Program-made: the position numbers and the translations under genes
Assembly: GCA_025464915.1 (NCBI GenBank)
Contig: JAODNF010000341.1
Coordinates: 1-49,961 of the forward strand
DNA length: 49,961 bases
Direction: 5' to 3'
Origin: Frankiales bacterium
Lineage (GTDB): Bacteria; Actinomycetota; Actinomycetes; Mycobacteriales; SCTD01
Part shown: piece after piece, positions 4,552-22,166 of the stretch
Position numbering within the stretch: position 1 is the first letter of the stretch
How the letters are laid out: each line of letters starts with the position of its first letter
Notes under the pieces: generated by a model
The model's database searches: none
Told to the model about the DNA's origin: nothing
The model's input: the letters and a program-made list of their open reading frames with translations, nothing else

Positions 4552-4642
4552 CCAGCTGTTGTAGGAATGCCACAACGAAGGTGGCCATCTTCGGTGGTCC
4601 CCGTCGTGGGCAGTGCTCCCGTCGTACCGGCACGCTTGTGGG

Positions 4643-5536
4643 ATGACGACGGCACTGGTCCGACCCGAGCTCCTCGCTGAGCAGCTCACCGCGCGGCTCG
4701 AGACGGCACTGGCGACCCACCTCGAGCGCGCCCAGGCGTGGTACCCGCACGAGTACGTCCCGTGGGGCCAGGCCAGCGACTTCGCGGAGCTGCCGTTCGA
4801 GGAGGCCCAGAGCCGGCTGTCGCGCGAGGTCCGGGCGAGCGTCCAGCTCAACCTGCTGACCGAGGACAACCTGCCCGGCTACCACGGGGCGATCAGCCGC
4901 GTCATGGGCTACACCGACGTGTGGCGGACCTGGCTCGACCGGTGGACGGCCGAGGAGGGCCGGCACGGCATCGCGCTGCGCGACTACCTCACGGTGACGC
5001 GGGCGGTCGACCCGGTGGTCCTGGAGGACGAGCGGATGCTCACCATGAGTGCCGGCTACGACTCCGGCGACCGTGACGGTCTGAGGGTCATCGCCTACGT
5101 GTCGATGCAGGAGCTCGCGACCCGGGTAGCCCACCGCAACACCGGCAGGTTCTCGAGCGAGCCCGGCCTCGACAGGCTGCTCGCCCGCATCTCCACCGAC
5201 GAGAACCTCCACATGGTCCTCTACCGCGACCTGTTCGGCGCGGCCCTCGAGACCGACCCCGTGCAGGCTCTGCAGGCGCTGCTCGCCGAGGTCGTCGGGT
5301 TCCAGATGCCGGGCACCGGCATCCCCGGGTTCGTGCGACGGGCGGCCGTGGTGGCGCGTGCCGGCATCTACGACCTGACGGTCCACCGCGAGCAGGTGCT
5401 CACGCCGCTGCTCGGGTACTGGCAGGTCTTCGAGCGCCCGTTGCCGCCGGAGGCCGAGGCGGTGCGCGACCAGCTCGCGCTCGTGCTCGAGGAGATCGAC
5501 CGTCGCGCGTCGAAGCAGCGAGCTGGTTCGGCATAG
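4643..5536 (+). CDS. Soluble di-iron acyl-ACP desaturase (DesA-like)
   Basis: ORF 4613..5536; the start may be 4613 or ATG 4643. Motifs [41 protein letters not shown] and TDENLHM are the paired carboxylate/His iron-ligand motifs of this family. Confidence 0.85.
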
Positions 5537-5544
5537 TTGGGGCG

Positions 5545-8133
5545 GTGACCGGATCCGACATCGCTGAGGACCTGCGCGCCGACATCCGGCTCGTCACCAC
5601 GATGCTCGGCGAGACGCTGGTCCGCAACGAAGGGCAGGACCTGTTCGACCTCGTCGAGCAGGTGCGCGCGTCCTCAGTGGACGACGTCGACCTGGTCGAC
5701 CTCGCGACCACGATCCGGGTGGCCCGCGCCTTCACGTCGTACTTCCACCTCGCCAACGTCACCGAGCAGGTCCACCGCGGCCGCGCGCTGCTGGCCGACC
5801 GGGCCGCGAACGGGGGCTGGGTCGAGCGGGCCCTCTCGCGGATGTCCGAGGTGCCGGCGGACGACGTCGCACGGCTGGCCGTCCGTCCGGTCCTCACCGC
5901 GCACCCGACCGAGGCAGCGCGCCGGTCGATCCTCGACAAGCTCCGGATGGTCGCGGCCCTGCTCGACCAGCAGCCGTCCCCCGCGCGCGACCGCCGGCTG
6001 GCCGAGGCCGTCGACCTGGTGTGGCAGACCGACGAGCTGCGGGTCGACCGGCCCGACCCGCTCGACGAGGCGCGCAACGGGATCTACTACCTCGAGGGGC
6101 TCGGCGCGACCGCCGTCGGCGACGTGCTCGAGGAGCTGCGCGACCAGCTCGCCCGTCGAGGCGTGACGTTCGAGGGCAGCCCGCTGACCTTCGGGACGTG
6201 GATCGGTGGTGATCGCGACGGCAACCCCAACGTCACGCCACTCGTCACCCTCGAGGTGCTGAAGCTGCAGGCCGAGCACGGCACCCGGCTGCTGCTGTCG
6301 CTGCTCGACGACCTGCGCCGCGAGCTGTCGGTGTCGCAGCGGATCAGTGGCGCCTCCGACGACCTGCTGGCGCGGCTGGCCTCGCTGCTGGAGGACGTGG
6401 CCGTCGAGGAGCGCTACCAGCGGCTCAACGCCGAGGAGCCGTACCGGCTGTTCCTCACCTGCTTGCGCGAGCGGCTGCGCGCCGGCACCTTCCGCGGCCT
6501 GCTCGACGACCTGCGGCTGCTCCAGGAGTCGGTGCGTGAGCACCAGGGCCCGCTCGTCGCCGGAGGCGGCGTCGACCGGCTGGTGCGCACGGTGTCGGCC
6601 ATGGGTCTGGTGCTCGCGACCATGGACGTGCGCGAGCACGCGGAGAAGCACCATCACGCGGTCGGCCAGCTGCTCGACCGGACCTGGGAGCTGTCGTTCC
6701 CCTACGCCGACCTCGCGCGCCAGCACCGGCTCGCCGCGCTCTCCAAGGAGCTGCGCTCGCGCCGTCCGCTGGCCTCCAAGCCGCTCCCGCTCGACGAGGA
6801 CGGCGCCCGCACGGCTTCGGTCTTCGACGCGATCGCGTGGGCGCTCGACACCTACGGCGACCGGGCGGTCGAGAGCTACATCATCTCGATGACGCAGGGC
6901 GCGGACGACGTGCTCGCGGCCGTCGTGCTCGCCCGCGAGGCAGGGCTCGTCGACCTCACGGAGGGCGTCGCGCGGATCGGGTTCGTCCCGCTGCTGGAGA
7001 CCGTCGTCGAGCTCGAGGGTGCCGCGGACATCCTGACGGCACTGTTCAGCGACCCGTCCTACCGGCAGCTGCTGTCGCTGCGCGGTGACCTGCAGGAGGT
7101 CATGCTCGGCTACTCCGACTCCAACAAGGCCGGCGGCATCGCCACCTCGCAGTGGCAGATCCACCGGGCGCAGCGGGTGATCCGCGACGTGGCGGCGGCC
7201 TTCGACGTGCGGGTCCGGTTCTTCCACGGACGCGGTGGTTCGGTCGGGCGTGGTGGCGGACCGACCTATGACGCGATCATGGCTCTGCCGAACGGCGCCG
7301 TCGACGGTGCGATCAAGCTGACCGAGCAGGGCGAGGTCATCAGCGACAAGTACGCCCTGCCGGTCCTCGCCCGCGAGAACCTCGAGCTGCTTCTCGCGGC
7401 TGCCCTCGAGGCGACGGTGCTGCACAGGTCCGCCCGCCGCACCTCCGAGCAGGGGGAGCGCTGGGACAGCGCCATGGACGCGGTCTCGTCGGCGGCGCAC
7501 ACGTCGTACCGGTCCCTGGTCGAGGACCCGGACCTACCGGCGTACTTCCTCGCGTCCACCCCGGTGGACCTCCTCGGTGAGCTGCACATCGGGTCGCGTC
7601 CGTCGCGCCGGCCGTCGTCGGCCGGCGGCATCGAGGGGCTGCGGGCCATCCCGTGGGTCTTCGGCTGGACCCAGTCTCGGCAGATCGTGCCGGGCTGGTT
7701 CGGTGTGGGTACGGGGCTCGCGGCCGTTCCCGACCGGGAGCTGCTTCGCGAGATGCACCGGGAATGGAACTTCTTCCGCGCGTTCCTCGGCAACGTGTCG
7801 ATGACCCTGGTGAAGGCCGACCTCGCACTGGCTGCTGTCTACGTCGACCGTCTCGTCGACCCGTCCCTGCGGCGGCTGTTCGACGTCATCCGCACCGAGT
7901 TCGACCTGACCGTCGCGCAGGTCCTCGACGTGACGGGGGAGTCCGAGCTGCTCGGGTCCGACCCGGTCCTGCTGCAGACGCTCCGGACCCGGGAGGCCTA
8001 CCTCGAGCCGCTGCACCGGTTGCAGGTCGACCTGCTCGCGCGCCGCCGGGCCGGCGAGGACGACCCACTGCTCTCCCGAGCCCTGCTGCTCACGGTTAAC
8101 GGCGTCGCGGCCGGCATGCGCAACACCGGCTGA
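5545..8133 (+). CDS. ppc: Phosphoenolpyruvate carboxylase
   Basis: 862 aa starting at GTG. Signatures [31 protein letters not shown] and [14 protein letters not shown], with the characteristic C-terminus [11 protein letters not shown]. Confidence 0.95.
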
Positions 8134-8155
8134 CCCTCCGGGAGGTGTGGGTCAG
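8130..8155. terminator. Weak hairpin between convergent ppc and the GAF-ANTAR gene
   Basis: CTGACCC (8130-8136) pairs with GGGTCAG (8149-8155). It spans both stop codons. There is no U-tract, which is common in high-GC actinobacteria. Confidence 0.3.
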
Positions 8156-8886
8156 AGGCGGATGTCAGCGACGCCAGGGTCCCGGTCCACGACCGCGCGG
8201 GCCACGTCGGCGAGCCGCAGGTTGCGGTTGCGGGCGTAGTCGCGCATCGCGACGAAGGCATCGTCGATGGGACAGCGGAGCGTCACGGCCAAGATCCCTT
8301 TGGCCTGCTCGAGGACGACCCGGCTGGACAGGGCGCTCTGCAGCTGCTCGGCGACAAGGCGGGACTCTCGCAGGGCGCGCTCGTGCAGGAGGCTGATGGT
8401 CGCGATGTCTGCCAGTGCCTGGGCGTTGCGCAGGTCCGGCTCGTGCAGCAGCACGTCCTTGTGCCCGAACAGGTTGAGCGCCCCGATCGTCTGCGAGCGC
8501 AGCCGCAGCGGGACGGCGCTGAAGGCCTGGAACCCGAGGGAACGGGCGTGCGGGGTGAACGTCGGCCACCGGGCCAGGGAGTCCGAGGACCGGGCGGACA
8601 CGGCCAGGCTGGTCGCGACGGCGTCGAGGCAGGGGCCTTCCTCGCTCTGCAGCTCCATCAGCTCGAGGGTGCGGCCCTGCTCGTCGGAGGAGGCCACGAC
8701 CTGCAGCTTGTGCGCGGCGTCGTGAAGCATCACCCCTGCCGAGGCGACGTCGAACAGGCCGACGCAGCGGCTGCTCAGCAGCTGCAGGAACGAGACGACG
8801 TCGAAGCCGGTGACGAGGATGTCGGCGAGCTCGACGAACGTGCGTGCCAGCAGGTCCTCAGGCGGTTCGTGGGACGGATGTGTCAT
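8152..8886 (-). CDS. GAF-ANTAR RNA-binding regulator
   Basis: 244 aa. GAF-like N-domain and ANTAR C-domain RVVLEQAKGILAVTLRCPIDDAFVAMRDYARNRNLRLADVARAVV. SD GAGGAGGA lies just upstream of ATG 8886. Confidence 0.85.
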   Translation of the reverse strand: MTHPSHEPPEDLLARTFVELADILVTGFDVVSFLQLLSSRCVGLFDVASAGVMLHDAAHKLQVVASSDEQGRTLELMELQSEEGPCLDAVATSLAVSARSSDSLARWPTFTPHARSLGFQAFSAVPLRLRSQTIGALNLFGHKDVLLHEPDLRNAQALADIATISLLHERALRESRLVAEQLQSALSSRVVLEQAKGILAVTLRCPIDDAFVAMRDYARNRNLRLADVARAVVDRDPGVADIRL

Positions 8887-8932
8887 CAGATCCTCCTCAG
8901 GGTGAGGCTGGTCGCGAGCTCCGGCGCGGGTG

Positions 8933-9622
8933 TCATGGTGGCCCGAACCGGGTGCGCCGGCCCACCACGTCGGACGCCACGTCCTCGAGCGGGAGCCCGG
9001 TGGAGTAGGCCCGTGCCCGCAACCAGGCCAGCGCGTCGCCGACGTTCAGGCCCGCTTGTGCGGAGACCATCCCGGTGGCCTGGTGGACGACGACCCGCTC
9101 CGAGCTGAGCGATCCCAGCTCGGTGTCGTTCCCGGCGTTGTCGGCCTGCTGCAGCAGGAGCACCGCCTCGGAGGCCAGCTCGGCCAGGCAGATCGCGTCC
9201 TCGAGCTGGTGGACGCTGAGGGGGCCGGCCCGCCCGCGGGCGGCGTCCAGCACGCCGAACCTGGACGCGCCGGCCTGCAAGGGGAAGGCGAAGACCGCAG
9301 CCACCCCCAGGTCGAGAGCGGCGTCCGCAAACAACGGCCACCTTGTCCGGCCCACGCCGGACACGTCGGGCTCCATGGCGGGGCGCCCGCTGCCGTGGGC
9401 GTCCAGGCACGGCCCCTCGCCCAGGCTGAACTGGATCGCCTCCAACGAGCCCACGAAGTCGCCGCAGGTGGCGAGCAGGCTGTGCGCCTGGGCGTCAGCC
9501 GTCAGAGCGATGCCGACCCCGTCGACGCCGAGGGCCTGGCACCCGACCTCGCACAGCCGCATGGGCAGCCGCTGGAGGGTCGTCTCCCCGACCAGGGCGT
9601 GGAGATCCTCTCGCTTGCCCAT
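8933..9622 (-). CDS. GAF-ANTAR RNA-binding regulator (paralog)
   Basis: 229 aa. GAF-like N-domain and ANTAR C-domain RVVVHQATGMVSAQAGLNVGDALAWLRARAYSTGLPLEDVASDVV. It starts 15 nt after the stop of the sugar-transferase gene on the same strand. Confidence 0.85.
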   Translation of the reverse strand: MGKREDLHALVGETTLQRLPMRLCEVGCQALGVDGVGIALTADAQAHSLLATCGDFVGSLEAIQFSLGEGPCLDAHGSGRPAMEPDVSGVGRTRWPLFADAALDLGVAAVFAFPLQAGASRFGVLDAARGRAGPLSVHQLEDAICLAELASEAVLLLQQADNAGNDTELGSLSSERVVVHQATGMVSAQAGLNVGDALAWLRARAYSTGLPLEDVASDVVGRRTRFGPP

Positions 9623-11503: not shown

Positions 11504-13473
11504 GGCAGCGCTGCCATCACGGGGCGAGGCTCCGGCAGGGCGATGACGTCCGGTGGACGCAGGCCCGCCACCTCGAAGAGCAGCGCGCGGGTGGCTTCGT
11601 CCCGTCCCGCCCAGGCATGAGCGCACAGCTCACCCACCGCCGTGCGCAGCGTCACCGCGTCGATCGTTCCGGTGCCGACGCGGAAGACCTTCGCGTGCGC
11701 TGTCGCGTGCACCGACTCGTCAGGGCTGGAGAGCTCCTCCACCAGCTTCTCGCCTGCCCGGAGGCCGGTGAACCGAACGTCGATGTCAACGCCCAGGACC
11801 AGCCCGGCGAGGTCGATCATCCGCTCCGCCAGGTCGACGATGCGGACCGGCTCACCCATGTCGAGGACGAAGACCTCTCCGCCCTCAGAGGTCGCCGCTG
11901 CCTGCAGGACGAGGGACACCGCTTCTCCGGTCGTCATGAAGTAGCGGGTCATGTCAGGGTGCGTCACCGTCAGCGGTCCGCCGGCCCGCAACTGGTCGAG
12001 GAACGTCGGCACGACGCTTCCACGGCTGCCGAGGACGTTGCCGAACCGCACGGCGCAGAAGTGCCGGCCAGGACCGTCCCCGTGAACCACGATCTGCTCG
12101 GCAATGCGCTTCGTGGCACCCATGACGCACTGGGGGCGCACCGCCTTGTCGGTCGAGATCGCGACGAACCTCTCGGTGCCCCACCGCACGGCGGCCCGGA
12201 CGAGGACATCGGTCCCGTGGACGTTGGTGCGCACGGCCTCGGCCGGGAACCGCTCCAGGATGGGGACGTGCTTGTGGGCCGCGGCGTGGAACACGACGTG
12301 TGGTCGCAGCTCACCCATCAGGGTGTCGAGGAACTCTGCGTCCCGGATGTCGCCGAGGACGCTGCGCCCGGTCCCCGTGAGCCGTGCCATCGCGTCGTGC
12401 AGGTGCGTCTCGTCGTGGTCCAGCAGGACGACCTCCGCCGGGTCGAGTCGAGCGACCTGCACGGCGATCTCGCTGCCGATGGACCCGCCTGCCCCGGTGA
12501 CCAGGACCCGCTTGCCGGTGATGATCGACCTCATCGCCGTGAGGTCGACGGCGACCGGCGGTCGTCCCAGCAGGGCCTCGAGAGCAGTCTCGTGGATCTC
12601 CCGGTAGGAGCGGCGCGTCGCATCGTGCAGGCTCGGGAGCGTCCGGACGCCCAGGCCCGCGGCACGGGCGAGCGTCAGGGCGCGCTCGTCAGACGCCTTG
12701 TCCCTCCCCGGGAGCAGCAGCACCTGCTGTCCGCCGTAGGCCCAGGCAAACCCGGGAAGGTCGTCGACCGGCCCGACGACGGGCACTCCTGCGAGCCGCC
12801 TGTGCCAGGCGCTCGCCTCGTCGGTGACGATGACGACGGGACGCAGCCGGGCGTGCGGCTCGCCGCGCATCTGCTCGACGGCCGCGCGGGCAGCACGAGG
12901 AGCGCCGATGACGAGCACCGCGTCCCCGTCCTCGGGAGCCATCGCACGCCCCTGGTCTCGCACGCGCACCTGGAAGCGGGCGACGGCGAGCAGCAGCACG
13001 AGGAGGAGCCCTGCGTTCAGCGGAACCGAGACCGGGAGGGCTCGGCCGCCGGCGGGGACAAGGTCCGCCAGCACGAGCAGCGCCGCCGCTCCGGTAGCCG
13101 TGACGCCTATCCACCAGGCCTCCACGACCCCGGCTTGCCCCCAGACCCGGGCGTAGAGGCCGACGCGGGCGAGCAGCAGCACGTAGGTCGCCCCTGCTGC
13201 GGCGGCGAAGGGCACCAGGTGGACCCAGTAGACCGTCGGGGCGTCGCCGTCGAACCGCAGGAGGAGGGCCGTCGCGTAGGCCAGCACCACCATCAGCACG
13301 TCGCAGAGGACGAGGCCCGGGTCGGTGCGCAGCTGTCCCGTGACGGACGACTTCCGGGAGCTGTCCCGGCCGCCCACCCCGTGCACCGAGGGTGCTGGGC
13401 ACCGATCGGGAGGAGAGGTTCGTCGTTCGCGCCGCGTACGGCGTTGCACCAGCATGCGCGCTCCGTGGGCCAC
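11500..13473 (-). CDS. Membrane-anchored NDP-sugar 4,6-dehydratase (CapD / PglF / WbpM family)
   Basis: 657-aa ORF; the true start is uncertain (13473, 13455 or an internal GTG). Several N-terminal TM helices, then RVLVTGAGGSIGSEIAVQV, HAAAHKHVP, AISTDKAVRP, GATKRIAEQ and RFGNVLGSRGSV. Confidence 0.85.
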   Translation of the reverse strand: MAHGARMLVQRRTRRERRTSPPDRCPAPSVHGVGGRDSSRKSSVTGQLRTDPGLVLCDVLMVVLAYATALLLRFDGDAPTVYWVHLVPFAAAAGATYVLLLARVGLYARVWGQAGVVEAWWIGVTATGAAALLVLADLVPAGGRALPVSVPLNAGLLLVLLLAVARFQVRVRDQGRAMAPEDGDAVLVIGAPRAARAAVEQMRGEPHARLRPVVIVTDEASAWHRRLAGVPVVGPVDDLPGFAWAYGGQQVLLLPGRDKASDERALTLARAAGLGVRTLPSLHDATRRSYREIHETALEALLGRPPVAVDLTAMRSIITGKRVLVTGAGGSIGSEIAVQVARLDPAEVVLLDHDETHLHDAMARLTGTGRSVLGDIRDAEFLDTLMGELRPHVVFHAAAHKHVPILERFPAEAVRTNVHGTDVLVRAAVRWGTERFVAISTDKAVRPQCVMGATKRIAEQIVVHGDGPGRHFCAVRFGNVLGSRGSVVPTFLDQLRAGGPLTVTHPDMTRYFMTTGEAVSLVLQAAATSEGGEVFVLDMGEPVRIVDLAERMIDLAGLVLGVDIDVRFTGLRAGEKLVEELSSPDESVHATAHAKVFRVGTGTIDAVTLRTAVGELCAHAWAGRDEATRALLFEVAGLRPPDVIALPEPRPVMAALP

Positions 13474-13950
13474 GTCCCGCGGAAGGGTGCGGAGACGAGC
13501 GATCGCGAAAGACCGAACGTCCCCGCGAGTGGTCTCAGTGACTGAGTGGACCGCGCGAAGCGGAGATACGCCCGCGTCATGCTGGCGCGCAAAGGCGAAG
13601 CCGTCGTATCACCGGAGCCGCAGCCGGCTCATCACGGACGCGGTCCCGAGACGTCCGCCCGAGCGCAACGGAGCGATGACGTGACCGAGTCAGAGCGCGA
13701 GGAGCGCAGGGTCGCCGGCGGGGGTGAGCGTCGCACCTACAACCGGCGTCAGCCGCCCACGGTCACCCCGCCTTACTACGAGGCCTTCGAGCGGATAGCG
13801 GTGGCCATCGAGGGGATCGGGTCGCTGCTTCAGCAGAGGCAGGTCAGGCTTCCGGACACAGCCGGGGCGGTACCGCCGCGCGCTTCGCCGGAGCAGAGCC
13901 GCGGCCGGTGACGATCGACCCGCAGGGCCGTCCACTCTGCTGAGCCCGGG

Positions 13951-14382
13951 TCACAGCGTGATCCACGACGTCTGCCAGTCCCGCCCTCTCACCGCACCTG
14001 CTGCCACTCGCGAGAGAACCATCGACAGGGGGCCGTGCGAGGGTGCCGAGACGAGGACACGGCTGCCCGGTCCGGACCGGAGCGACACGTCGGTGCGAGG
14101 GCTGAGGACCTCGACGAGGAGCTCGATCTCCGGGGTCGTCCGCACCTCCAGCCGCGCGACGCCTTCTGGCCGCTGACCGTTCTCGACGTCGAGCACGCTG
14201 ACCCGTGCCAGCAGTCCGGGCCCGGCGAACACCAGGACCCGAGTGACGCCGGCTGGTAGCGCGGGATGGAGCTCCCAGCTGCCGGTGCAGGTGTCGTCGA
14301 TGAGCTCGAGGAGGACCGCCCCCTCGCGCCTGCGGTCGAAGGCCGCCAGCGCCGCAAGGCGCACGTGGTCCGGTACCGCCAC
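13951..14382 (-). CDS. Hypothetical protein downstream of the ECF sigma factor
   Basis: 143 aa in a GC3-rich frame. SD GAGGAGG lies 5 nt upstream of GTG 14382, and the gene is 48 nt downstream of the sigma gene. I see no TM helix, no zinc-finger anti-sigma motif and no recognisable domain. Confidence 0.6.
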   Translation of the reverse strand: MAVPDHVRLAALAAFDRRREGAVLLELIDDTCTGSWELHPALPAGVTRVLVFAGPGLLARVSVLDVENGQRPEGVARLEVRTTPEIELLVEVLSPRTDVSLRSGPGSRVLVSAPSHGPLSMVLSRVAAGAVRGRDWQTSWITL

Positions 14383-14430
14383 GTGGCCTCCTCGGTGTGC
14401 GGGACGGTGATCCCGCAGCCACCGGGACTG

Positions 14431-15039
14431 TCAGTGGCTGTCACCATCCAAGACACTTCTTGCTGGCTCAGCAATACCCCGCATCGCGAGCAATCCTTGC
14501 AGCCGGTCAAGACATCGACCCCGTGTCGGCCCGATGCTGCCGATGGGCATCCCCATGGCGGCGGAGATCTCGTCGTACGAGGCGGGCGGGTCGAGCATGA
14601 GCAGGTGAAGGAGCTGACGGCAGCGGGGTGACAGGCCGAGCAGTGCCCGCTGCACCTCGGCGTCGCGCTCGTCGCCGAGCAGTGCCGCATCGATCTCGGG
14701 GTCGTGGTGCGGCCGGCCGTCGGCCAGTGGCCCCGCGTCGGCGACCGGGAAGGTCTTGGACCCCCGGCCGATGACCCTGAGGCACTCTCGCCGCGCGGTC
14801 GTCGCCAACCAGGCCCCGACCCGGGCCGGGTCGTCGATCGAGCCGATGTGCTCGACCAGGCGCAACCAGGTGGTCTGCGACACGTCGCCCGCATCCGCCT
14901 GGCCGAGCCTGTGGTTGCGCGCGATGGTCCAGATCAGACCGGCGTAGGAGTCGACGAGCAGCTCCCAGCTGTGCCGGTCGCCGCCCGCGGCGTCCCGCAC
15001 CAGCGTCGCTGACTCGCCAGGCGTGAGTCGGGTGCTCAT
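14431..15039 (-). CDS. ECF-type sigma-70 family RNA polymerase sigma factor
   Basis: 202 aa. Region 2 (LLVDSYAGLIWTIARNH, DVSQTTWLRLVEH) and region 4 HTH (ASYDEISAAMGMPIGSIGPTRGRCLDRL). Confidence 0.9.
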   Translation of the reverse strand: MSTRLTPGESATLVRDAAGGDRHSWELLVDSYAGLIWTIARNHRLGQADAGDVSQTTWLRLVEHIGSIDDPARVGAWLATTARRECLRVIGRGSKTFPVADAGPLADGRPHHDPEIDAALLGDERDAEVQRALLGLSPRCRQLLHLLMLDPPASYDEISAAMGMPIGSIGPTRGRCLDRLQGLLAMRGIAEPARSVLDGDSH

Positions 15040-15176
15040 GCCCTCACCGCCTGGCCGTTGACGAGCACGGATGCTGCTACTGACCCTAGGAAGTCAGCGA
15101 TAGGGCTGCTATCGGTCGCTTGCATGACCCGCTCCTACGCTCGAGCGCGTACGCCGGGTCCCGGGGCGGGTGCGCG

Positions 15177-15833
15177 TCATGGGTGGTCGGATCGGAGAGT
15201 GGGCCCGGGCGGGGAGCTGCGATCTGCGCGGGTGCCTCGCAACCACGAGGCGGCCTGCACCGCGGAGTGCACGTCGATCTTGCGGAACAGGCGCTGCCGG
15301 TGCGTCCGCACCGTGTTCGGCGACAGGTGCAGCTGTGCGGCGATCTCGCGGTTGGTCCGACCTGCCGCGACCAGGTCCAGGACGGTGCGCTCGCGCGGCG
15401 AGAGGTCCTGGTCGTCGACGGCGGTCCGAGGGGCGGCGATGAGCCGCTGCAGCACGCTGCCGACGAGCTCAGCGGGCACCCACATGTCACCTTCGACGAC
15501 GGCCCTGACGACGTGCAGGACGAGGCCGGGCAGGGCGTCCGCGGGCAACCAGGCCGACGCGCCAGCCCGAAGCGCGGCGAGGGTCTCGTTGACCGGATCG
15601 ATGCCCTCGGCGCTCCCGAGGGCGACGCAGAGGGCGCTGTCCGGTGCCCCGCGGCTGCCCCACGACACCCCCTGCGGCAACATGGTCTCGTCGGCGATCA
15701 GGACGTCCAGCCGGTCCAGGCCCTGCAGCGCGTCGTAGGCGCTGGTGCCCACCTCGACGACGAGGTCCGGCGCGAGGGAGGCGACAGCCGAGGCGGACGC
15801 CTCGGCGACGAGGCGCTGCCGGTGCAGCACCAT
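15177..15833 (-). CDS. LuxR/GerE-family regulator with atypical receiver domain
   Basis: The 422-aa ORF 15177..16445 reads through the upstream gene in another frame. It is trimmed to ATG 15833 (GTG 15836 is an alternative). HTH LSPRERTVLDLVAAGRTNREIAAQLHLSPNTVRTHRQRLFRKI. The receiver-like N-domain lacks the acidic pair (MVLHRQ) and the conserved Lys (WLPAD) but keeps an Asp in DVLIADE. Confidence 0.8.
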   Translation of the reverse strand: MVLHRQRLVAEASASAVASLAPDLVVEVGTSAYDALQGLDRLDVLIADETMLPQGVSWGSRGAPDSALCVALGSAEGIDPVNETLAALRAGASAWLPADALPGLVLHVVRAVVEGDMWVPAELVGSVLQRLIAAPRTAVDDQDLSPRERTVLDLVAAGRTNREIAAQLHLSPNTVRTHRQRLFRKIDVHSAVQAASWLRGTRADRSSPPGPTLRSDHP

Positions 15834-15865
15834 CACGTGGACGTGTCCTGAGCCGGGCACAGCGC

Positions 15866-16459
15866 TCACCCCTCCGCCGCGTCGGCCCACGTGCTGGCGG
15901 TGAGTGCCTCGACCTGGTTGCGGGCGTCGAGCTTCCTGCGTGCGGACTCCAGGTGCGAGCGCACGGTGTGCGGCGAGATGCCGAGCTCGGCCCCGATCTC
16001 CCGACTGGACAGGCCGTTGCCGACGAGCTCCAGGAGCTCTCGCTCGCGGTGGGTGAGGGCGGTCGGGCGGGCGTCGCGCCGGGCGGCTGCGGGCCGGGGT
16101 GTCGTGACGACCTCGGAGACGAGCTGGTCGAGAGCGGCGAGGGACAGGCTCTTGTCGGCGACGGCCCGGGCACCGGCGACCAGTGCCAGCTGCGCCACCG
16201 CCTCGGTGACCGCGCCGCTGAGCACGACGATCGTCGTGCGAGGTGCGACGACGCGGATCGCCGAGATCGCGGTCACCCCAGCCAGTAGGTCGTCCCCGAA
16301 GCGCGCGTCGAGGAGGCAGAGGTCGAACGGTGACGCCCGGAGCGCGGAGAGCGCCTCGCTGGGGTGCGACGAGACCCGGGCGGTGTGACCGCGCTCCTGG
16401 AAGTGATGAGCCAGGCAGGCGGCCAGCATGGCGTGGTCGTCGCACACCAGCACGCGCAC
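15866..16459 (-). CDS. NarL/LuxR-family response regulator (canonical receiver)
   Basis: 197 aa. VLVCDDH, DLCLLDARF, VVLSG and ADKS receiver landmarks, plus HTH LTHRERELLELVGNGLSSREIGAELGISPHTVRSHL. Confidence 0.9.
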   Translation of the reverse strand: MRVLVCDDHAMLAACLAHHFQERGHTARVSSHPSEALSALRASPFDLCLLDARFGDDLLAGVTAISAIRVVAPRTTIVVLSGAVTEAVAQLALVAGARAVADKSLSLAALDQLVSEVVTTPRPAAARRDARPTALTHRERELLELVGNGLSSREIGAELGISPHTVRSHLESARRKLDARNQVEALTASTWADAAEG

Positions 16460-16461
16460 GG

Positions 16462-17136
16462 TCAGCCGGCCGTTCGCGGCAGGTGGAGCCCGACGGCGAG
16501 ACCGCCGAGGGGTCCGACCCGGCGCGTCACGGTGCCGTTGTGCCGGCGGGCCACGTCCGCCACGACAGCCATGCCGAGCCCTGACCCGTTGAACGCGCGT
16601 GCCGTGCCGGAGCCGTCGTCCTCGACCTCGAGCAGCACCTCGTCATGGTCGTCCGCGACCGTGACGCGGATGGATCCCTGTGGAGCGGCGAGCCTCGCGT
16701 TGTCGAGAAGGTTGACGATCGCCCGTCGGACGTCGCTCGCCACCCCCCGCACCAGGCCCTCGTCGGGCACGTGGAGGTCGATGACCCCGGGGTGCACGAG
16801 CCGCGCGGTCCTGACGACGTCGACGACGAGCGGCCGGAGTGCCAGGTCACGCGGCGGTGACGGCAGCCGGGCCTCACGGAGCGTCGCTCGCAGGACCTCG
16901 ACCTGGTTCCGGAGCGCCTGCTCCAGGGGCTGTGGGTCCCGCGCGCCGATGAGGCGCGACACCAGGTGCTCCATCACGGTGACCTCCTGCTGGAGGTCGT
17001 GGCAGAGCTCGTTCAGCCCGAGGGCGGACGCGGCGGCTGCCGAGTCGTGATCACCCGGTGCGAGCCGGAGCACCAGCTCAGCGGACACCTCCTTGCGCTC
17101 GACGGGCGCAAGAGGGCTGTTGGCAGCTGCGGTCAT
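16462..17136 (-). CDS. Cytoplasmic HisKA_3-type histidine kinase without a sensor domain
   Basis: 224 aa with no TM helix. H-box LNELCHDLQQEV, N-box VNLLDNARLAA, G1 VEDDGSG and G2 GSGLGMAVV. Its stop is 2 nt from the start of the regulator gene at 16459. Confidence 0.8.
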   Translation of the reverse strand: MTAAANSPLAPVERKEVSAELVLRLAPGDHDSAAAASALGLNELCHDLQQEVTVMEHLVSRLIGARDPQPLEQALRNQVEVLRATLREARLPSPPRDLALRPLVVDVVRTARLVHPGVIDLHVPDEGLVRGVASDVRRAIVNLLDNARLAAPQGSIRVTVADDHDEVLLEVEDDGSGTARAFNGSGLGMAVVADVARRHNGTVTRRVGPLGGLAVGLHLPRTAG

Positions 17137-17314
17137 CGGACACTCCGGAACTCGGGGCGGGCGACGCCGAGATCTAGAGCGAAGGGGTGAGCGGGGCCAG
17201 GTTGCTGCGGCCCGTCCCGGAGACTACTGCGTTGGTTGTCCCATGTCTGCGTTCGGGAGCACATCCCGGGCCCGTGAGACGTATCCGTCGTGACGGGCAG
17301 CTGCTCTCCCGGAC

Positions 17315-17734
17315 ATGGACATCGGGGCGTGCGGTGCCGGGGTGTGCCCCGACGGCCGCCGCGTCGAGCTCACCATCCATGACGCGAGCTGGCGCGGCCT
17401 GCTTGCGCTGCGCGACGCCGTGGCGCACGGGACGCGTGACCCGCACACGACGGTCTGCGTCGACCTGCACGAGATCGCCTGGGAGACCGCCTCGACGTTC
17501 TGGCTCGCGGCGATCGTCTCCGCGGCGCGAGTGGCACGAGCGCGTGGCTGCGGGCTCGAGGTGCGATCGGCACCTGCCCACCTGTGTGACGCGCTTGCTC
17601 GACTGGGGCTCGGAGCACGTCAGTTCGAACCAGGTGTGCTCACCGGCGGCCTCGGGACGGCTTGGTGCCCGTTGGGAACCGCCCGCTGCTGCGCGCTCGG
17701 CAGCCAGGCAGCACTCGACGGCGCCGGCCAGTAG
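17315..17734 (+). CDS. STAS-domain (anti-sigma-factor-antagonist-like) protein
   Basis: 139 aa. VCVDLHEIAWETASTFWLAAIVSAARVARARGCGLEVRSAPAHLCDALARLGL resembles the SpoIIAA/STAS core. The SD is weak. The last 115 nt overlap the 3' end of the convergent GGDEF-EAL gene. Confidence 0.55.
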   Translation: MDIGACGAGVCPDGRRVELTIHDASWRGLLALRDAVAHGTRDPHTTVCVDLHEIAWETASTFWLAAIVSAARVARARGCGLEVRSAPAHLCDALARLGLGARQFEPGVLTGGLGTAWCPLGTARCCALGSQAALDGAGQ

Positions 17735-19314
17735 AAGCCCTGACCCTGGTCGCAGCCGCACTCACGAGCGAGCCGCAGCTGCTCCGCGCTCTCGATGCCG
17801 TTCGCCACCACGAGCAGGTCGAGCGAGTGGGCGAGCTCGCAGAGGGCACGGACGAGGGCCCGTGCACTGCGCACCGTGGGCAGCTGCCAGGTGATCGCCG
17901 GGTGCAGCTTGAGGTAGTCCAGCGGGTAGGACCAGAGGGTCGTCAGTGCCGACAGGTCGGACCCGAAGCCGTCGAGCCCCACCTGCACGCCGCCGCGACG
18001 CAGGTCCTCGAGCCGCTGCAGCGCTGCGGAGGAGGTCCTGCGCAGCACCTCCTCGCGCAGCTCGACGCGCAGCGCACCGGAGCCGGCGTGCTGATCGCTC
18101 AGGGTCTCCATCGCCCGGTCCCGCCAGGCGTCGTTCTCGAGGTCGATGCCTGCGAGGTTGAGGTCGACGGGCAGCGGGGTGGACGACCCGTCCTGGTGGG
18201 ACATCGCCTGCGCGAGAACCTCGAGGTCGAGTGCGCCGATCAGCCGCTCGGACGTCGCGATCTCCAGGAAGTCGGGTGGCCGCAGGAACTCGCCGGCCGG
18301 GCCCGGCACGCGCAACAGGGCCTCGGTCCCGATGCGCTGCCCGCTGGCCAGGTGCACGACCGGTCGATAGTCGAGAGCCACCGTGTGGGTCCGGAGGGCC
18401 TCGTGGATGACGGCTGTGACCCGCTTGCGCGTGCTCAGCCGGGCTTCGTCCCCGGCTCCCCACGCGCTCCAGCGGCCGCCACCCGCTGCCTTGGCCTGGT
18501 ACATCGCCACATCGGCTCGTCGGAGCAGCGTCTCGGTGGTCTGGGTCGCGTCGGACGTGATGGCCAGGCCGACGCTGACGGAGCAGTCGAGCTCGTGCCC
18601 CTCGACGTCGACGGCGATCAGGCCGACCGACACGATCCTCCTCGCGAGCAGCTCGGCATCCGCTGGGTCGTGCAGGTCGCCGATCAGGACGGCGAACTCG
18701 TCGCCCCCCATGCGCGCGAAGGTGTCGCCTGGACGCAGGAGCGACTGCACGCGACGGCCCAGCTCGCGCAGGACCGCGTCGCCCGCCTGGTGCCCCAGTC
18801 TGTCGTTGACCGGCTTGAGCCGGTCCAGGTCGAGGAAGAGCAGCGCCACCCAGAGCCGCTCGCGTCCCAGTCGACGCAGGGCATGCCGGGCGTGGTCGAC
18901 CAGCACAGGCCGGATCGCGGCGCCCGTGAGCTGGTCGGTGTGGGCAGCGGTCACGACGGAGACAGGGGTCGCACCGCGATCCGTCACGTCGCGCAGGTGG
19001 ACGGTCAGCTCGCCCGGATCACCGGAACGGGTGGTGACCTCGAGCTCGAACCAGTGGGGCTCGCCCGCGGGGTCGAGCAGCTCGACGCGCACCAGTTCCG
19101 CACGCCGGGACGCCGCTACGGTGTCGAGCGCCACGCGCAGCCGGAGACGGGCTGCGGGAGGGACGAGCTCGAGCAGGGAGCGCCCGGCGAGAGTGCCGTG
19201 CTCGTGGCCCATGGCTGCCCTGTAGGCGCGTGATGCGTGGACCACGACCCAGTCGGATCCGACGGCCGCCACGGCGCAGACCGCGAGGCGGTGCTCGCCG
19301 CTGCGTTCGGTCAT
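17620..19314 (-). CDS. PAS-GGDEF-EAL c-di-GMP turnover protein
   Basis: 564 aa. SD GAGGAGGAG lies before ATG 19314. PAS-like N-domain. I-site RPGD sits five residues before an intact GGDEF (RPGDTFARMGGDEFAVL). EAL domain motifs YRPVVHL, GTEALLRV, DYLKL, VANGIES and DQGQGFYW. Confidence 0.9.
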   Translation of the reverse strand: MTERSGEHRLAVCAVAAVGSDWVVVHASRAYRAAMGHEHGTLAGRSLLELVPPAARLRLRVALDTVAASRRAELVRVELLDPAGEPHWFELEVTTRSGDPGELTVHLRDVTDRGATPVSVVTAAHTDQLTGAAIRPVLVDHARHALRRLGRERLWVALLFLDLDRLKPVNDRLGHQAGDAVLRELGRRVQSLLRPGDTFARMGGDEFAVLIGDLHDPADAELLARRIVSVGLIAVDVEGHELDCSVSVGLAITSDATQTTETLLRRADVAMYQAKAAGGGRWSAWGAGDEARLSTRKRVTAVIHEALRTHTVALDYRPVVHLASGQRIGTEALLRVPGPAGEFLRPPDFLEIATSERLIGALDLEVLAQAMSHQDGSSTPLPVDLNLAGIDLENDAWRDRAMETLSDQHAGSGALRVELREEVLRRTSSAALQRLEDLRRGGVQVGLDGFGSDLSALTTLWSYPLDYLKLHPAITWQLPTVRSARALVRALCELAHSLDLLVVANGIESAEQLRLARECGCDQGQGFYWPAPSSAAWLPSAQQRAVPNGHQAVPRPPVSTPGSN

Positions 19315-19449
19315 GGCTCCTCCTCTTCTTCAGGAGGGGCGTCACGTTCGTCTGAATACCCGACGACCTGGTGCATCACGGGCGTACCTGACGTCTCTGA
19401 GGTTCTGGGGCCCGCGCATCGGTCCGGGCCTGGTGAAGGGGAGAGCCAC

Positions 19450-19713
19450 GTGCTGGAGCTCACGGACCATGCCCGGAAGATGATCGGCGAGCTCTGCGCT
19501 CGAAGGAGAAGCCCCGGCGCGGGCCTGCGCATCGCCCAGCGCCCCGCAGGGCCAGGGCTCTGCATGTCCGTGCAGGACGAGCCCGCGCCCGGTGACGTGG
19601 TCGTGAGGATCGACCAGGCGGTGCTCTACCTCGACGCCACGGCGCGCGACAGGCTCGCGGGTCAGACGTTGGATGCCCGCTCGAACGAGCTCGGCGCGGC
19701 GTTCTTCCTCTGA
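19450..19713 (+). CDS. HesB/IscA-like small protein lacking the C-terminal Cys motif
   Basis: ORF 19237..19713 trimmed to GTG 19450, preceded by GGTGAAGGGGAGAG. The 87-aa product VLELTDHARKMIGEL...GLRIAQRP...LYLDATARDRLAGQTLDA has the IscA-fold pattern but ends ELGAAFFL with no CGC motif. Confidence 0.55.
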   Translation: MLELTDHARKMIGELCARRRSPGAGLRIAQRPAGPGLCMSVQDEPAPGDVVVRIDQAVLYLDATARDRLAGQTLDARSNELGAAFFL

Positions 19714-19723
19714 GCCCCCGCCG

Positions 19724-20395
19724 TCAGAGATCTGTCGAGCCGCCCCGTCGGGCCTGCGTGAGGACGACAGCCTCCAGGCAGCTGTGCACGCCGAGCTTCT
19801 CGAACAGGTGCTGGATGTGCGTTCGCACGGTGTTGATCGACATCTCGTGACGCCGGGCGATGGCAGCCCGCGAGCTGCCCTCGACGAGACCCGCGAGGAC
19901 CTGGCGCTCTCGCGGTGTGAGGCTGGCGAACCTGGCGGTCAGGCCGTCGTCCGCTGCCCTGCGGAGCTCCTGCAGCGCCTCGCCGACCGCCCACCGCGGG
20001 AGCCACCAACCGCCGGCCGAGACCTCGCGCAGCACGCGGTCGACGTGGTCCAAGCTGTCGCTCGTGCAGGCCCAGCCCCTGGCCCCGGCGAGCACCAGGG
20101 CGGGCAGCGCGGTCTCGTCGCGGCTGACCAGCAGGACCACGACCGCTGCTTCCGGGTGCTGCGTCGTGAGCTGGGCGAGCAGCTGCCGGCCGCGGCCCTT
20201 GCTGCTCATGAGCACGGTGTGGGGCGCCGGCGGTGCTTCGCCCGAGGGGTGCAGGACCTCGACGGGTGTCGCCGCGCGGACCTGCCAGGCGCCGAAGCTC
20301 CTGGAGGTCAGTGCCATGGCGAGGCTCTCCGCGAAGGTCTTCTCCTCGTCGATGACGAGGACGTCGAGCGCACCGTGCACGAGCGGGGTGCTCAC
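19724..20395 (-). CDS. LuxR-family regulator with pseudo-receiver domain (VpsT/CsgD-like architecture)
   Basis: ORF 19724..20992 trimmed to GTG 20395, which overlaps the upstream stop as GTGA. The receiver-like domain has Ser at the acceptor position (HTVLMSSKG). The linker contains GGWWLPRWAV. HTH LTPRERQVLAGLVEGSSRAAIARRHEMSINTVRTHIQHLFEKL. Confidence 0.8.
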   Translation of the reverse strand: MSTPLVHGALDVLVIDEEKTFAESLAMALTSRSFGAWQVRAATPVEVLHPSGEAPPAPHTVLMSSKGRGRQLLAQLTTQHPEAAVVVLLVSRDETALPALVLAGARGWACTSDSLDHVDRVLREVSAGGWWLPRWAVGEALQELRRAADDGLTARFASLTPRERQVLAGLVEGSSRAAIARRHEMSINTVRTHIQHLFEKLGVHSCLEAVVLTQARRGGSTDL

Positions 20396-21012
20396 CCGCA
20401 GCGCTCGCCCTCGAGATCCGGCCACCAGTGCCGGTGAGAGTGCGCGACCGCCTCGAGGCGCGAGTGCGCGCCCAGCTTCTCGATGACGGTCTGCACGTAG
20501 CAGCGAGCGGTCGAGTGCGAGATCCCCAGGCCCGTGGCGATCTCGCGGGTCGTACGGACGTCGCGCATGAGGTCGAGCGTGCGCTGCTCCTGACGGGTGA
20601 GGAACCTCAGCCGGGTGGGGTCGGCCTGCTCGCGGGGGCTGGGCAGGGCGCCCGAGACGCATCCCGAGACAGCGAGCAGCACGTCCTTTAGGGCGTGCCC
20701 CCGGTGCAGCACGACCTGCGCGCCGGCTCTCAGCAGCGCCCGGTGCAGCGAGTGGCGCTCGAGCCCCGTGAGGCACACGATCCGAGTGGTAGGCGCAGCT
20801 CGACGGCACGCGGTCACGATCCGCTCGTCGTCGAAGGGGGTGCGGCCCCGGAGGCTGAGCACCAGCACGCTCGTCGGATCGTCGCTGACGACGCTGAGCG
20901 CGTCGAGATGCCCTTCCACGGCGTGGACCTGGCACGTGAGGGAGGCCAGCGCCAGGGCCAGCGCCTCTGCCGCGAGCAGCTGCTCGTCGCACACCACCAC
21001 CAGCTGGTGCAT
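20392..21012 (-). CDS. LuxR-family regulator with pseudo-receiver domain
   Basis: ORF 20392..21141 trimmed to ATG 21012, with a strong SD AAGGAGG upstream. VVVCDEQ, but there is no acceptor Asp (VLVLSLRG). HTH LTRQEQRTLDLMRDVRTTREIATGLGISHSTARCYVQTVIEKL. Confidence 0.8.
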   Translation of the reverse strand: MHQLVVVCDEQLLAAEALALALASLTCQVHAVEGHLDALSVVSDDPTSVLVLSLRGRTPFDDERIVTACRRAAPTTRIVCLTGLERHSLHRALLRAGAQVVLHRGHALKDVLLAVSGCVSGALPSPREQADPTRLRFLTRQEQRTLDLMRDVRTTREIATGLGISHSTARCYVQTVIEKLGAHSRLEAVAHSHRHWWPDLEGERCG

Positions 21013-21170
21013 GCGGCCACCTCCTTGCGGTCCCGGCTCGTTTGGGCAGAGCGTGCCGTCGCCCGGCCTGATACGCCGACCAGGTCGCTGACGTAGTGCG
21101 GTCGCAGGGTCCCGACCGTCACCCGACGTGGCACGGTGCACCCACAGGTCCCGTCCAGAGCCGAGGTGCC

Positions 21171-22166
21171 ATGCGGTCCGGAGTGAGCGTCATCATGCCG
21201 GTCCGGCAGGAGGGCGCGGGCCTGCGCGCGGTGCTGCGGGCAGTGCAGGACCAGGAGTGCCTCGAGGTCCTGGTGGCAGTCGGTCCGAGCACGGACGGGA
21301 CCGAGGAGCTCGTCGCCGCAGTGGCGCGCGAGGACCCGCGGGTCCGCCTGCTGCCCAATCCCGAGGGCATCGTCAGCACGGGGCTCAACCGGGCCATCCG
21401 CGAGGCCAGGGGCGGCCGGGTGGTGCGGATCGACGGTCACTGCCTCGTCCCGAAGGGCTACGTGGCAAGCCTGCTCGCGACGGCCGAGCGGACGGGCGCG
21501 AGCTGCGTCGGACCCCAGCTGCGGACCGTCGGTCGCGGCCCTGTGCAGCAGGGCATCGCCTCGGCGATGAGCTCGCCGTTCGGTGTCGGCGCGGCGCGCT
21601 TTCGCACGGGGGGTGCCTCCGGTTACGTCGACACCGTCGCTTTCGGGCTCTACGAGACCGCGCGCCTGCGCCTGCTCGGCGGGTTCCGGGAGGACCTCGT
21701 CCGCAACCAGGACGACGAGCTGAACGCACGCCTGCGACGGTCGGGCGGCACCATCTACCTCGACGCGGGCGTCACCGTCGACTACTTCCCCCGGGCGTCG
21801 TTGGTGGGCCTGTTCCGCCAGTACTACGAGTACGGCTACTGGCGCACCGTGACGGCGCGCCTGCACGGGGACGCCCTCAGACCCCGGCAGCTCGTGCCGG
21901 GTGCGTTTGTCGCCGCGGTCGCGGTCACCGTGGCGGTCGGTGCCACGGGCCGGACCGCGCCGCTCGGGGCGCTGGGTGGGTGCTACGGAGCGGTGCTCCT
22001 GCTCCTTGTGGGTCAGACGCAACGCCGGACCCGCAGTCCTGCCGTCGCGCTGCTGAGTGCCCCGGCCGCGGTCGTCCTGCACCTGTCGTACGGGCTGGGC
22101 CTGTGGCGCTCGCTGCTGAGGTGGAGCATCCTCGCGCCAGCCCGCAGGAGCGAGTCGCCGGCGTGA
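21171..22166 (+). CDS. Family 2 glycosyltransferase (ExoA-like) with C-terminal membrane helices
   Basis: ORF 21096..22166 trimmed to ATG 21171 (SD GAGGTG). GT-A motifs VSVIMPVRQE, STDGTEELV and VRIDGHC. The C-terminus has hydrophobic helices (LVPGAFVAAVAVTVAV, AVLLLLVG, LSAPAAVVLHLSYGLGLW). Confidence 0.85.
   Translation: MRSGVSVIMPVRQEGAGLRAVLRAVQDQECLEVLVAVGPSTDGTEELVAAVAREDPRVRLLPNPEGIVSTGLNRAIREARGGRVVRIDGHCLVPKGYVASLLATAERTGASCVGPQLRTVGRGPVQQGIASAMSSPFGVGAARFRTGGASGYVDTVAFGLYETARLRLLGGFREDLVRNQDDELNARLRRSGGTIYLDAGVTVDYFPRASLVGLFRQYYEYGYWRTVTARLHGDALRPRQLVPGAFVAAVAVTVAVGATGRTAPLGALGGCYGAVLLLLVGQTQRRTRSPAVALLSAPAAVVLHLSYGLGLWRSLLRWSILAPARRSESPA

Follow-up and report, generated by a model that had tools for sequence, protein, structure and literature searches.

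Atypical regulators of the NarL family are known, as are two-component operons to which a regulator with a pseudo-receiver domain has been added, and both bear on the subject of this study, a block of two adjacent pairs of LuxR-type regulator genes (RegA-RegB and RegC-RegD) in a 49,961-nucleotide stretch of the Frankiales bacterium contig JAODNF010000341.1, hereafter referred to as the window. What this block adds to existing knowledge is that the pair formed by an upstream (RR1-type) and a downstream (RR2-type) regulator is an ancient and widespread actinobacterial unit, the phosphorylation sites of which have decayed in steps. In the reading that we favor, with a probability of about 0.6, the block contains two diverged copies of this ancient unit: in one of them a kinase would act on RegC, with RegD functioning independently of phosphorylation, and the other one, RegA-RegB, would be a kinase-less derivative devoid of the acceptor aspartates.

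The closest precedent in terms of operon composition is CmrRST from Clostridioides difficile (PMC12548384, PMC12632262), in which a kinase shares its operon with two regulators of one family, one of them canonical and the other with a pseudo-receiver; homodimers and possible heterodimers have been reported for this system, into which cyclic di-GMP (c-di-GMP) also feeds (PMC12548384). Unlike the NarL-family proteins of the window, CmrR and CmrT belong to the OmpR family and the gene order is R-S-T, with neither a second, kinase-less pair nor an ECF sigma or STAS gene. Furthermore, c-di-GMP acts through a riboswitch in CmrRST, whereas an Rfam search of the window revealed no riboswitch for c-di-GMP and no other known RNA element except for a match to ASdes. 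With regard to regulator family, the nearest precedent is BldM/WhiI from Streptomyces (PMC4125116), both of which are phosphorylation-independent NarL-family regulators, and where the atypical WhiI requires heterodimerisation with BldM in order to act (PMC4125116), a mechanism also put forward for the pairs of the window in the initial annotation. However, bldM and whiI are unlinked orphans, while the partners described here are adjacent and translationally coupled, are accompanied by a kinase in one of the two pairs, and are so far candidates for heterodimerisation.

Two further groups of proteins are relevant for individual members of the block. The Vibrio regulators VpsT, QstR and BrpT (3KLN/3KLO; PMC6237807) share with RegB the LuxR/CsgD-type organization, a non-phosphorylated receiver, a long α6 helix and a W-L-x-R motif at the same position. 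In addition, VpsT controls polysaccharide genes and RegB is encoded in a polysaccharide locus, and the motif of RegB is exactly the WLPR variant of QstR and BrpT. By contrast, RegB is only about 20% identical to VpsT, which keeps the acceptor Asp that is absent from RegB. Finally, the literature on aspartate-less receivers (ALR) and pseudo-receiver regulators (PMC4395418, PMC12632262) provides definitions which RegA and RegB (ALR) and RegD (pseudo-receiver) fit, and singles out as variable the α2-α3 region, which is the one altered in RegD. Those surveys deal with single proteins, whereas in the present case the decay affects a conserved unit of two genes and can be traced from lineage to lineage. 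The initial annotation of the window, which was made from the sequence alone, knew of no described system with a duplicated paired layout of this kind. This view did not hold, as CmrRST represents a precedent for an operon of kinase, regulator and pseudo-receiver, and BldM/WhiI one for a heterodimer of typical and atypical NarL proteins; moreover, the layout is present, whole or in part, in relatives, and kinase-RR1-RR2 triads are widespread in Actinomycetota.

The window corresponds to contig C90 of a metagenome-assembled genome (MAG) of 3.8 Mb with 72% GC, whose close relatives have been deposited as 'Frankiales bacterium', 'Pseudonocardiales bacterium' or 'Jatrophihabitans sp.' MAGs. The two pairs and the kinase are arranged as follows (HTH, helix-turn-helix; AF2, AlphaFold2 model):

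20392..21012, minus strand: RegA, NarL-family regulator with an Asp-less pseudo-receiver and a GerE HTH domain (Pfam, alignment to 4zmr)
19724..20395, minus strand: RegB, NarL-family regulator with an Asp-less pseudo-receiver, a long α6 helix and a GerE HTH domain (Pfam, AF2, Foldseek)
19994..20005, minus strand: W131-L-P-R134 motif of RegB (phmmer alignment to 3kln)
16462..17136, minus strand: small soluble kinase of 224 aa without a sensor domain, consisting of a DHp-like region and HATPase_c
15866..16459, minus strand: RegC, canonical NarL-family response regulator (Pfam)
15177..15860, minus strand: RegD, NarL-family regulator with a pseudo-receiver and a GerE HTH domain (Pfam, AF2, Foldseek)

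All seven genes initially described, including the two same-strand LuxR-type pairs, were found in their expected places with a normal coding composition (GC content at third codon positions, GC3, of 0.82–0.91 for the genes of the block), and the same products were obtained from independent gene calls on public contigs. In Pfam searches, GerE (PF00196) scored above the cut-off in all four regulators (RegD/P0001, 9e-21; RegC/P0002, 2.6e-15; RegB/P0003, 3.1e-15; RegA/P0004, 1e-8). Since these GerE helix-turn-helix domains are intact, all four proteins would be expected to act as transcription factors. Four of the 17 GerE matches in the 3.8-Mb genome fall within 6 kb, all of them on the minus strand, where the chance expectation of further matches in a stretch of that size is about 0.03. 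Response_reg, on the other hand, was above the cut-off only in RegC (1e-13); the value for RegA was weak and below the cut-off (0.002), and Pfam gave no Response_reg match for RegB and RegD.

Residue alignments with orthologs showed that RegC alone among the four regulators keeps the complete phosphorylation pocket (D7 D8, D51, S81 and K103), in agreement with the initial annotation. The start of its partner RegD is more likely to be GTG 15860, because the public gene call comprises 227 aa, the residues thus gained are needed in the orthologs for strand β1, and a GGAGG sequence lies upstream; the RegC-RegD gap is therefore more likely to be 5 nt than the 32 nt proposed before. In the 227-aa numbering, the acidic pair of RegD is replaced by H13 R14, the Thr by G82 and the Lys by A107, with D57 being kept. 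A similar profile was observed in RegD orthologs (n = 8), in which the acidic pair is replaced (motif VLH[RH][QE]), Thr is changed to Gly and Lys to Ala, and the acceptor position holds Asp or Glu. According to the definitions in PMC12632262, by which a pseudo-receiver is a recognizable receiver that has lost one or more of the five conserved active-site residues, RegD is a pseudo-receiver; it keeps D57, so it is not an ALR. Its AF2 model, with a mean predicted local distance difference test score (pLDDT) of 81.6, contains the receiver fold without α3, and Foldseek matched it to ChrA, LiaR, VraR, VpsT and NarL with a probability of 1.0 along about 220 columns.

In the second pair, the receivers of both members have lost the acceptor residue. 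A full-length residue alignment of RegA with Spr1814 (4zmr) identified D9 E10, S53 at the acceptor site, T82, and R104 at the Lys position; in RegA orthologs (n = 6), the sequence at the acceptor site is S-[LV]-R, and Arg invariably takes the place of the Lys. RegB has D16 E17, S64 at the acceptor position at the end of strand β3 and T111 at the Lys position, and all of its orthologs (about 10) are devoid of the acceptor Asp, with Ser, Cys or Gly in its place and the Lys mostly retained. Both RegA and RegB are ALRs under the definitions of PMC12632262. The AF2 model of RegB (mean pLDDT of 82.8) displays the full (βα)5 fold followed by a 24-residue α6 at positions 134–157, and its Foldseek matches, with a probability of 1.0, are full-length NarL-family regulators. 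The two genes overlap by GTGA, the start of RegB lying over the stop of RegA, so that the translational coupling proposed for them is indeed visible in the sequence; an AAGGAGG sequence is located 8 nt ahead of the RegA ATG. Altogether, the alignments bore out the view that three of the four receivers are degenerate, with RegA, RegB and RegD each having lost active-site residues. Judging from these residues, the three regulators probably cannot be phosphorylated, even though public sources label the genes as ordinary "NarL/FixJ response regulators", an annotation that the present results correct.

RegA orthologs also carry conserved cysteines, located in 'VCD' in β1, 'IVCLT' in β4 and a C-terminal 'RC[GS]'. 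The recognition-helix 'TARCYVQ' has its Cys in the closer RegA orthologs and a Ser in two more distant ones; the RegA C-terminus and recognition helix are encoded at positions 20392–20420 and 20470–20500 of the window, respectively. The shared cysteines hint at a possible redox control of RegA.

The kinase was matched in Pfam to HATPase_c (4.1e-13) and, weakly, to HATPase_c_2 (5e-4). Its initial assignment as a HisKA_3 kinase was rejected, since no match to HisKA_3 (PF07730) or HisKA was obtained in Pfam even at E ≤ 1, and the same was true for the orthologs on public contigs. Nevertheless, the His within an 'LCHDL' motif lies in a helical, DHp-like region ahead of a complete GHKL ATPase with its N, G1 and G2 boxes. 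This residue is kept in four out of five kinase orthologs, being conserved in the contigs L016, L017 and L020 and replaced by Gln in G017, a MAG of the same genus. RegC starts 2 nt past the kinase stop; kinase, RegC and RegD are encoded on the same strand with 2 and 5 nt between successive genes, and this arrangement is kept in G017, L016 and L017.

A maximum-likelihood tree recovered RegA, RegB, RegC and RegD each as monophyletic (99–100% support) and separated A and C from B and D. When 19 pairs from other Actinomycetota were included, all 20 downstream members fell into one clade (support of 100/99), the upstream/downstream label changed twice along the tree compared to 13.4 times for shuffled labels, and the RR1 and RR2 parts of the tree mirrored each other in their sister relations. 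The architecture shared by the two pairs, as first recognized in the initial annotation, is hence that of two distinct NarL subfamilies, one made up of the upstream members (RegA, RegC) and the other of the downstream members (RegB, RegD). This separation indicates that the pair is an ancient unit in which phosphorylation sites have decayed repeatedly. The nearest canonical relatives of RegA/RegC (P0023) are found in plain two-gene systems of kinase and regulator, and those of RegB/RegD (P0019, P0135) are orphans; therefore, the pair is not universal in either subfamily.

For a broader survey, a RegD profile was used to scan one genome per prokaryote species, and the recovered loci (n = 45) were then searched by tblastn with the window proteins. 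The arrangement 'small kinase, RR1, RR2' on one strand was present in 11 of the 45 loci, among them loci of Actinomycetota MAGs and of a Nocardioides. Sixteen of the 45 loci, among them those of several Catenulispora species, contain a Polysacc_synt_2 gene. RR1 was canonical in nearly all loci; RR2 was canonical in L032, L045, L061, L067 and Catenulispora, and variously degenerate in others. In L045, from an uncultured Actinomycetota MAG, two tandem kinase-RR1-RR2 triads occur (5159–9146, plus strand), all of them canonical, with a Polysacc_synt_2 gene around 1.3 kb downstream. Within the genus, other RR1-RR2 pairs were noted: in G005:C258, the RR1 shows a D-to-A change and the RR2 changes of DD to HQ and of D to G, and in both G005:C424 and G001:C22 a sigma gene, a RegD-like gene and a degenerate RR1 occur with no kinase (the corresponding locus labels are L015 and L028 for G005, and L026 for G001).

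In the window, both pairs are embedded in a larger set of genes, which is completed by the following features:

19450..19713, plus strand: conserved 87-aa open reading frame (ORF) with no assigned function, between the GGDEF-EAL gene and RegB
17620..19314, minus strand: PAS-GGDEF-EAL protein for c-di-GMP turnover (Pfam)
17315..17734, plus strand: STAS_2 protein (Pfam)
15083..15155, minus strand: promoter-like block in the RegD-sigma intergenic region, conserved across an alignment of six orthologous regions
14431..15039, minus strand: ECF-type sigma factor (TIGR02937, Pfam Sigma70_r2)
13951..14382, minus strand: 143-aa protein of no known family, candidate anti-sigma factor or partner

One flank consists of Polysacc_synt_2 and DegT-type genes and the other one of GT2, UDP-glucose dehydrogenase, GT1 and Wzz genes, and Pfam analysis of these neighbors confirmed the earlier placement of the block within a glycan locus and beside a PAS-GGDEF-EAL gene.

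Comparison with close relatives revealed that this organization is conserved in parts. In G017 and in L016, a JGI contig, the order is RegB, 87-aa ORF, PAS-GGDEF-EAL, STAS, kinase, RegC, RegD, sigma, 143-aa gene and Polysacc_synt_2. In contig L020, GT2 and RegA are divergent, RegB follows RegA with a 4-nt overlap, and the ORF, PAS-GGDEF-EAL, STAS and kinase come next; this reproduces the layout of the window over the whole interval from GT2 to kinase. Conservation of the RegA-RegB pair extends to G011, G001 and L020; in the first two, the pair lies beside the same GT2/UDP-glucose dehydrogenase/GT1/Wzz arm with the cassette not being there. The cassette itself, i.e., an EAL or PAS-GGDEF-EAL gene, kinase, RegC, RegD, ECF sigma and 143-aa gene, is kept in G017, L016 and L017–L019. 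The latter are JGI and Logan contigs (RegD 44% identical) with the order EAL, kinase, RegC, RegD, sigma and a 136-aa gene; they encode an EAL-only protein, have no STAS gene and contain an extra 151-aa HATPase_c_2 gene, and the cassette is situated there beside haem biosynthesis genes (HemQ-like, protoporphyrinogen oxidase and URO-D). Gene junctions in all relatives examined, and for both types of pair, are GTGA, ATGA or TGATG overlaps or gaps of 2–5 nt.

The genome of G017 (contig L012, i.e., G017:C114) was particularly informative. There, the RegB frame is preceded by 'VRQVLVCDAH', the RegA N-terminus, as an in-frame remnant of 10 codons (L012 11100–11200, minus strand), which is also found in P0013; the fusion of this remnant to RegB means that RegA was deleted in G017. 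In the same contig, the kinase His is changed to Gln (~7400–7560) and the RegC acceptor Asp to Gly (6850–6900), and this joint loss points to the 'LCHDL' His and D51 of RegC as the phosphotransfer pair. Despite the loss of both residues, RegD and the sigma factor of G017 are 70% and 83% identical, respectively, to the window copies, and thus both have been maintained without phosphotransfer. RegC evolves fast, with 49% identity in comparison with 70–83% for its neighbors.

These data can be arranged as a decay series that runs from canonical pairs (Catenulispora, Nocardioides), via pairs with a degenerate RR2 (the genus) and the combined loss of kinase His and RR1 Asp (G017), to the Asp-less, kinase-less RegA and RegB. 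As the control of pseudo-receiver response regulators has been called a mystery (PMC12632262), such a series could help to work it out.

Based on these results, we propose the following mechanism. The ancestral unit would have consisted of tandem, translationally coupled genes of the NarL/LuxR family, RR1-type followed by RR2-type, of which the block would represent two very diverged copies. In copy 1, the sensor-less cytoplasmic kinase probably phosphorylates RegC on D51. RegD, having neither the metal-binding acidic pair nor the pocket Lys, would not be phosphorylated and would serve as a DNA-binding partner or output, in amounts tied to those of RegC by coupled translation. In copy 2, RegA-RegB, which would have lost the kinase and both acceptor aspartates, we expect an orphan pair whose activity is set by how strongly it is expressed, by protein partners, or by both. 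As targets, we consider the neighboring ECF sigma gene, which has a conserved promoter block, and the polysaccharide operons on either side most probable; the input would probably come via the STAS protein and/or the PAS-GGDEF-EAL enzyme, as suggested by synteny. The gene content, the status of the residues, the receiver folds, the conserved synteny and coupling and the phylogeny with its two subfamilies were established by the present analysis, from which we infer the phosphotransfer from kinase to RegC, the cooperation or plausible heterodimerisation within pairs, and the target genes. In a stronger form of this proposal, which we put forward tentatively, the RR1-RR2 pair would be an obligate heteromeric, genetically linked NarL-family factor widespread in Actinomycetota, in which RR2 (and in kinase-less copies both members) has repeatedly become a pseudo-receiver. 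If the pairs act as heteromers, the principle of BldM/WhiI would also apply to a system that is widespread, encoded in operons and linked to genes for envelope polysaccharides; an obligate heteromer would, in turn, be a hard-wired, BldM/WhiI-like coincidence detector for envelope polysaccharide loci and the ECF sigma gene.

Several observations weigh against this proposal. Firstly, RegA was deleted in G017 and is absent from L016, and hence RegB can exist without it. Secondly, the link to polysaccharide genes is frequent and not obligatory, given that the cassette of L017–L019 lies beside haem and not glycan genes. Thirdly, a search for operator-like palindromes (perfect 7-nt inverted repeats) in seven intergenic regions yielded only one hairpin, which is located in the gap between the sigma and the 143-aa genes. 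Moreover, closely related entries contribute to the 45-locus counts (nine of the loci come from Catenulispora, and several MAGs are near-duplicates), which therefore overstate independence. Lastly, the idea that the pair was duplicated once, as a whole, was set aside; the trees are compatible with it and do not prove it, as canonical single regulators are interleaved with both subfamilies.

The alternative that survives best, and which we regard as possible, is that the paired regulators are co-expressed and yet independent, forming homodimers with regulons of their own and no heteromer; for example, the two-component system could raise the level of a constitutively active RegD. The same alternative has been offered for CmrRST in a review on pseudo-receivers (PMC12632262), and CmrR and CmrT are each homodimeric (PMC12548384). 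Independence would also account for the persistence of RegB without RegA in G017 and L016, and for the conservation of RegD in G017 when the RegC Asp and the kinase His have been lost. However, overlapping or near-abutting genes have been kept over large evolutionary distances, and the RR1 and RR2 phylogenies are mirrored; because of this conserved coupling and the mirrored trees, a stoichiometric co-production fits better than mere co-transcription.

A further point to consider was the Trp-containing linker, which the initial annotation took as a shared feature of the downstream members; it also suggested that the pseudo-receivers are controlled by ligands or partners. The linkers of RegB and RegD are indeed present and conserved in their orthologs, and RegA and RegC have no Trp at the corresponding position. 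Within RegB, W131-L-P-R134 occupies the same position as W131-L-T-R134 of VpsT, with 'gwwlpr' aligned on 'EMWLTR' (phmmer, 3kln, a fragment of 101 aa); WW[LM]PR is conserved among RegB orthologs, one of which has WMPH. The equivalent sequence in RegD is W-V-P-A, without the Arg. Nonetheless, G-E-T-W-[IVL]-P is typical of RR2-type proteins in general, including canonical ones, and RR1-type proteins have no such motif whatever the status of their receiver. For this reason, the idea that the Trp linker marks pseudo-receivers was rejected: the same motif is found in canonical RR2-type proteins and is missing from the upstream members.

The resemblance to VpsT raises another explanation, namely that RegB, possibly along with further proteins of the RR2 type, acts as a receptor for c-di-GMP in the manner of VpsT, with the PAS-GGDEF-EAL enzyme setting the local c-di-GMP level; binding of c-di-GMP to W-L-P-R at the base of α6 would then lead to dimerisation and activation of glycan genes. 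The residue-for-residue match of WLPR with the VpsT WLTR, and its retention in RegB orthologs, speak for this, as do the proximity of RegB to a GGDEF-EAL gene in the window, G017, L016 and L020, and the combination of a polysaccharide locus with a long α6, both as in the case of VpsT. We nevertheless consider this explanation unlikely. RegB departs from the VpsT/CsgD motif W[F/L/M][T/S]R at the start of α6, as it has Pro instead of Thr/Ser, and the proline variant (WLPR) of QstR and BrpT is reported to act independently of c-di-GMP, QstR becoming c-di-GMP dependent once Thr is restored at motif position 3 (PMC6237807). Since WLPR is this ligand-independent variant, we gave less weight to VpsT-like sensing by RegB, and the earlier notion of ligand-controlled pseudo-receivers is weakened as well (PMC6237807). 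Furthermore, the RegA-RegB pair of G011 and G001 has no GGDEF-EAL gene within 9 kb, the motif is WMPH in one RegB ortholog and is devoid of Arg in RegD, W-[ILV]-P is general in RR2-type proteins, canonical ones included, and Foldseek ranked VpsT no higher than ordinary NarL-family regulators as a match for RegB.

Even less probable, in our view, is that the HATPase_c and STAS proteins form an RsbW/RsbV-like partner-switching module acting on the ECF sigma factor, with the LuxR regulators as a separate layer. Such a module would make sense of the STAS_2 gene divergent from the kinase, the weak HATPase_c_2 match, the sigma gene in the cassette and the additional 151-aa HATPase_c_2 gene just downstream in L017–L019. 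By contrast, the kinase is extended at its N-terminus by around 100 residues, which include a DHp-like helix bearing the conserved His, it scores far better with HATPase_c than with HATPase_c_2, and it is kept in L017–L019 where the STAS gene is missing. In addition, the canonical RR1 always follows the kinase by 2–4 nt, the kinase His and the RegC Asp were lost jointly in G017, and the canonical relatives are plain two-gene systems of kinase and regulator. Finally, that RegA, RegB and RegD are merely decaying, non-functional paralogs of duplicated response regulators, as the lineage-specific loss of phosphorylation residues, the deletion of RegA in G017 and the fast evolution of RegC (49% versus 70–83%) might suggest, is highly improbable in the face of intact frames with a GC3 of 0.91, strong GerE scores, confident AF2 folds and orthologs of 55–70% identity with family-specific motifs at the former active site (SLR, VLHRQ, WWLPR).

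With regard to the genes downstream of RegD, the ECF sigma factor was identified by TIGR02937 (61.1 bits compared to a cut-off of 42.9) and by Sigma70_r2 (7.3e-12, Pfam). It is the most conserved gene of the cassette, with 83%, 76% and 64% identity in G017, L016 and L017, respectively, and is always placed directly after RegD. The 143-aa gene, whose product gave no match in Pfam or NCBIfam, always follows the sigma gene and is syntenic in G017, L016 and L017. Ahead of the sigma gene, six orthologous loci share the promoter-like block (alignment A6); this block includes a -10-like TAGGGT (15083–15088), a -35-like CGATAGCA/CGGATACC box (15107–15114) and CGTACG-like boxes (15134–15155). We infer from this conservation that the block (15083–15155) is a candidate binding site for RegC/RegD. 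A scan of positions 13400–21400 detected neither a sigma-70 promoter consensus nor intrinsic terminators.

Regarding the remaining genes, the PAS-GGDEF-EAL protein matched PAS_4 (7.9e-13), GGDEF (8.4e-37) and EAL (7.4e-48) in Pfam, and both the RxxD-x5-GGDEF and the EAL motifs were seen in the translation of 17620..19314. The STAS_2 match (17315..17734) is close to the threshold (6e-7, 30.0 bits compared to a cut-off of 29.2, Pfam). This gene, which is called identically on public contigs, is located on the opposite strand, divergent from the kinase gene and convergent with the PAS-GGDEF-EAL gene, with which it shares a 3' overlap of 115 nt (17620–17734); the overlap is 34–46 nt in relatives. 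The STAS protein is conserved over residues 13–103, and its overlapping C-terminal tail is not. The 87-aa ORF has a GC3 of 0.89, is 63% identical in G017 and L016, and was called as a gene on a public contig; its only match was a sub-threshold one to a HesB/IscA-like family (28 bits compared to a cut-off of 58.8).

Outside the block, the Rfam match to ASdes, a mycobacterial antisense small RNA of the desaturase gene, was located at positions 4955–5022 (minus strand), with 77 bits compared to a gathering score of 40. It sits within a 324-aa ORF on the plus strand (4565–5536).

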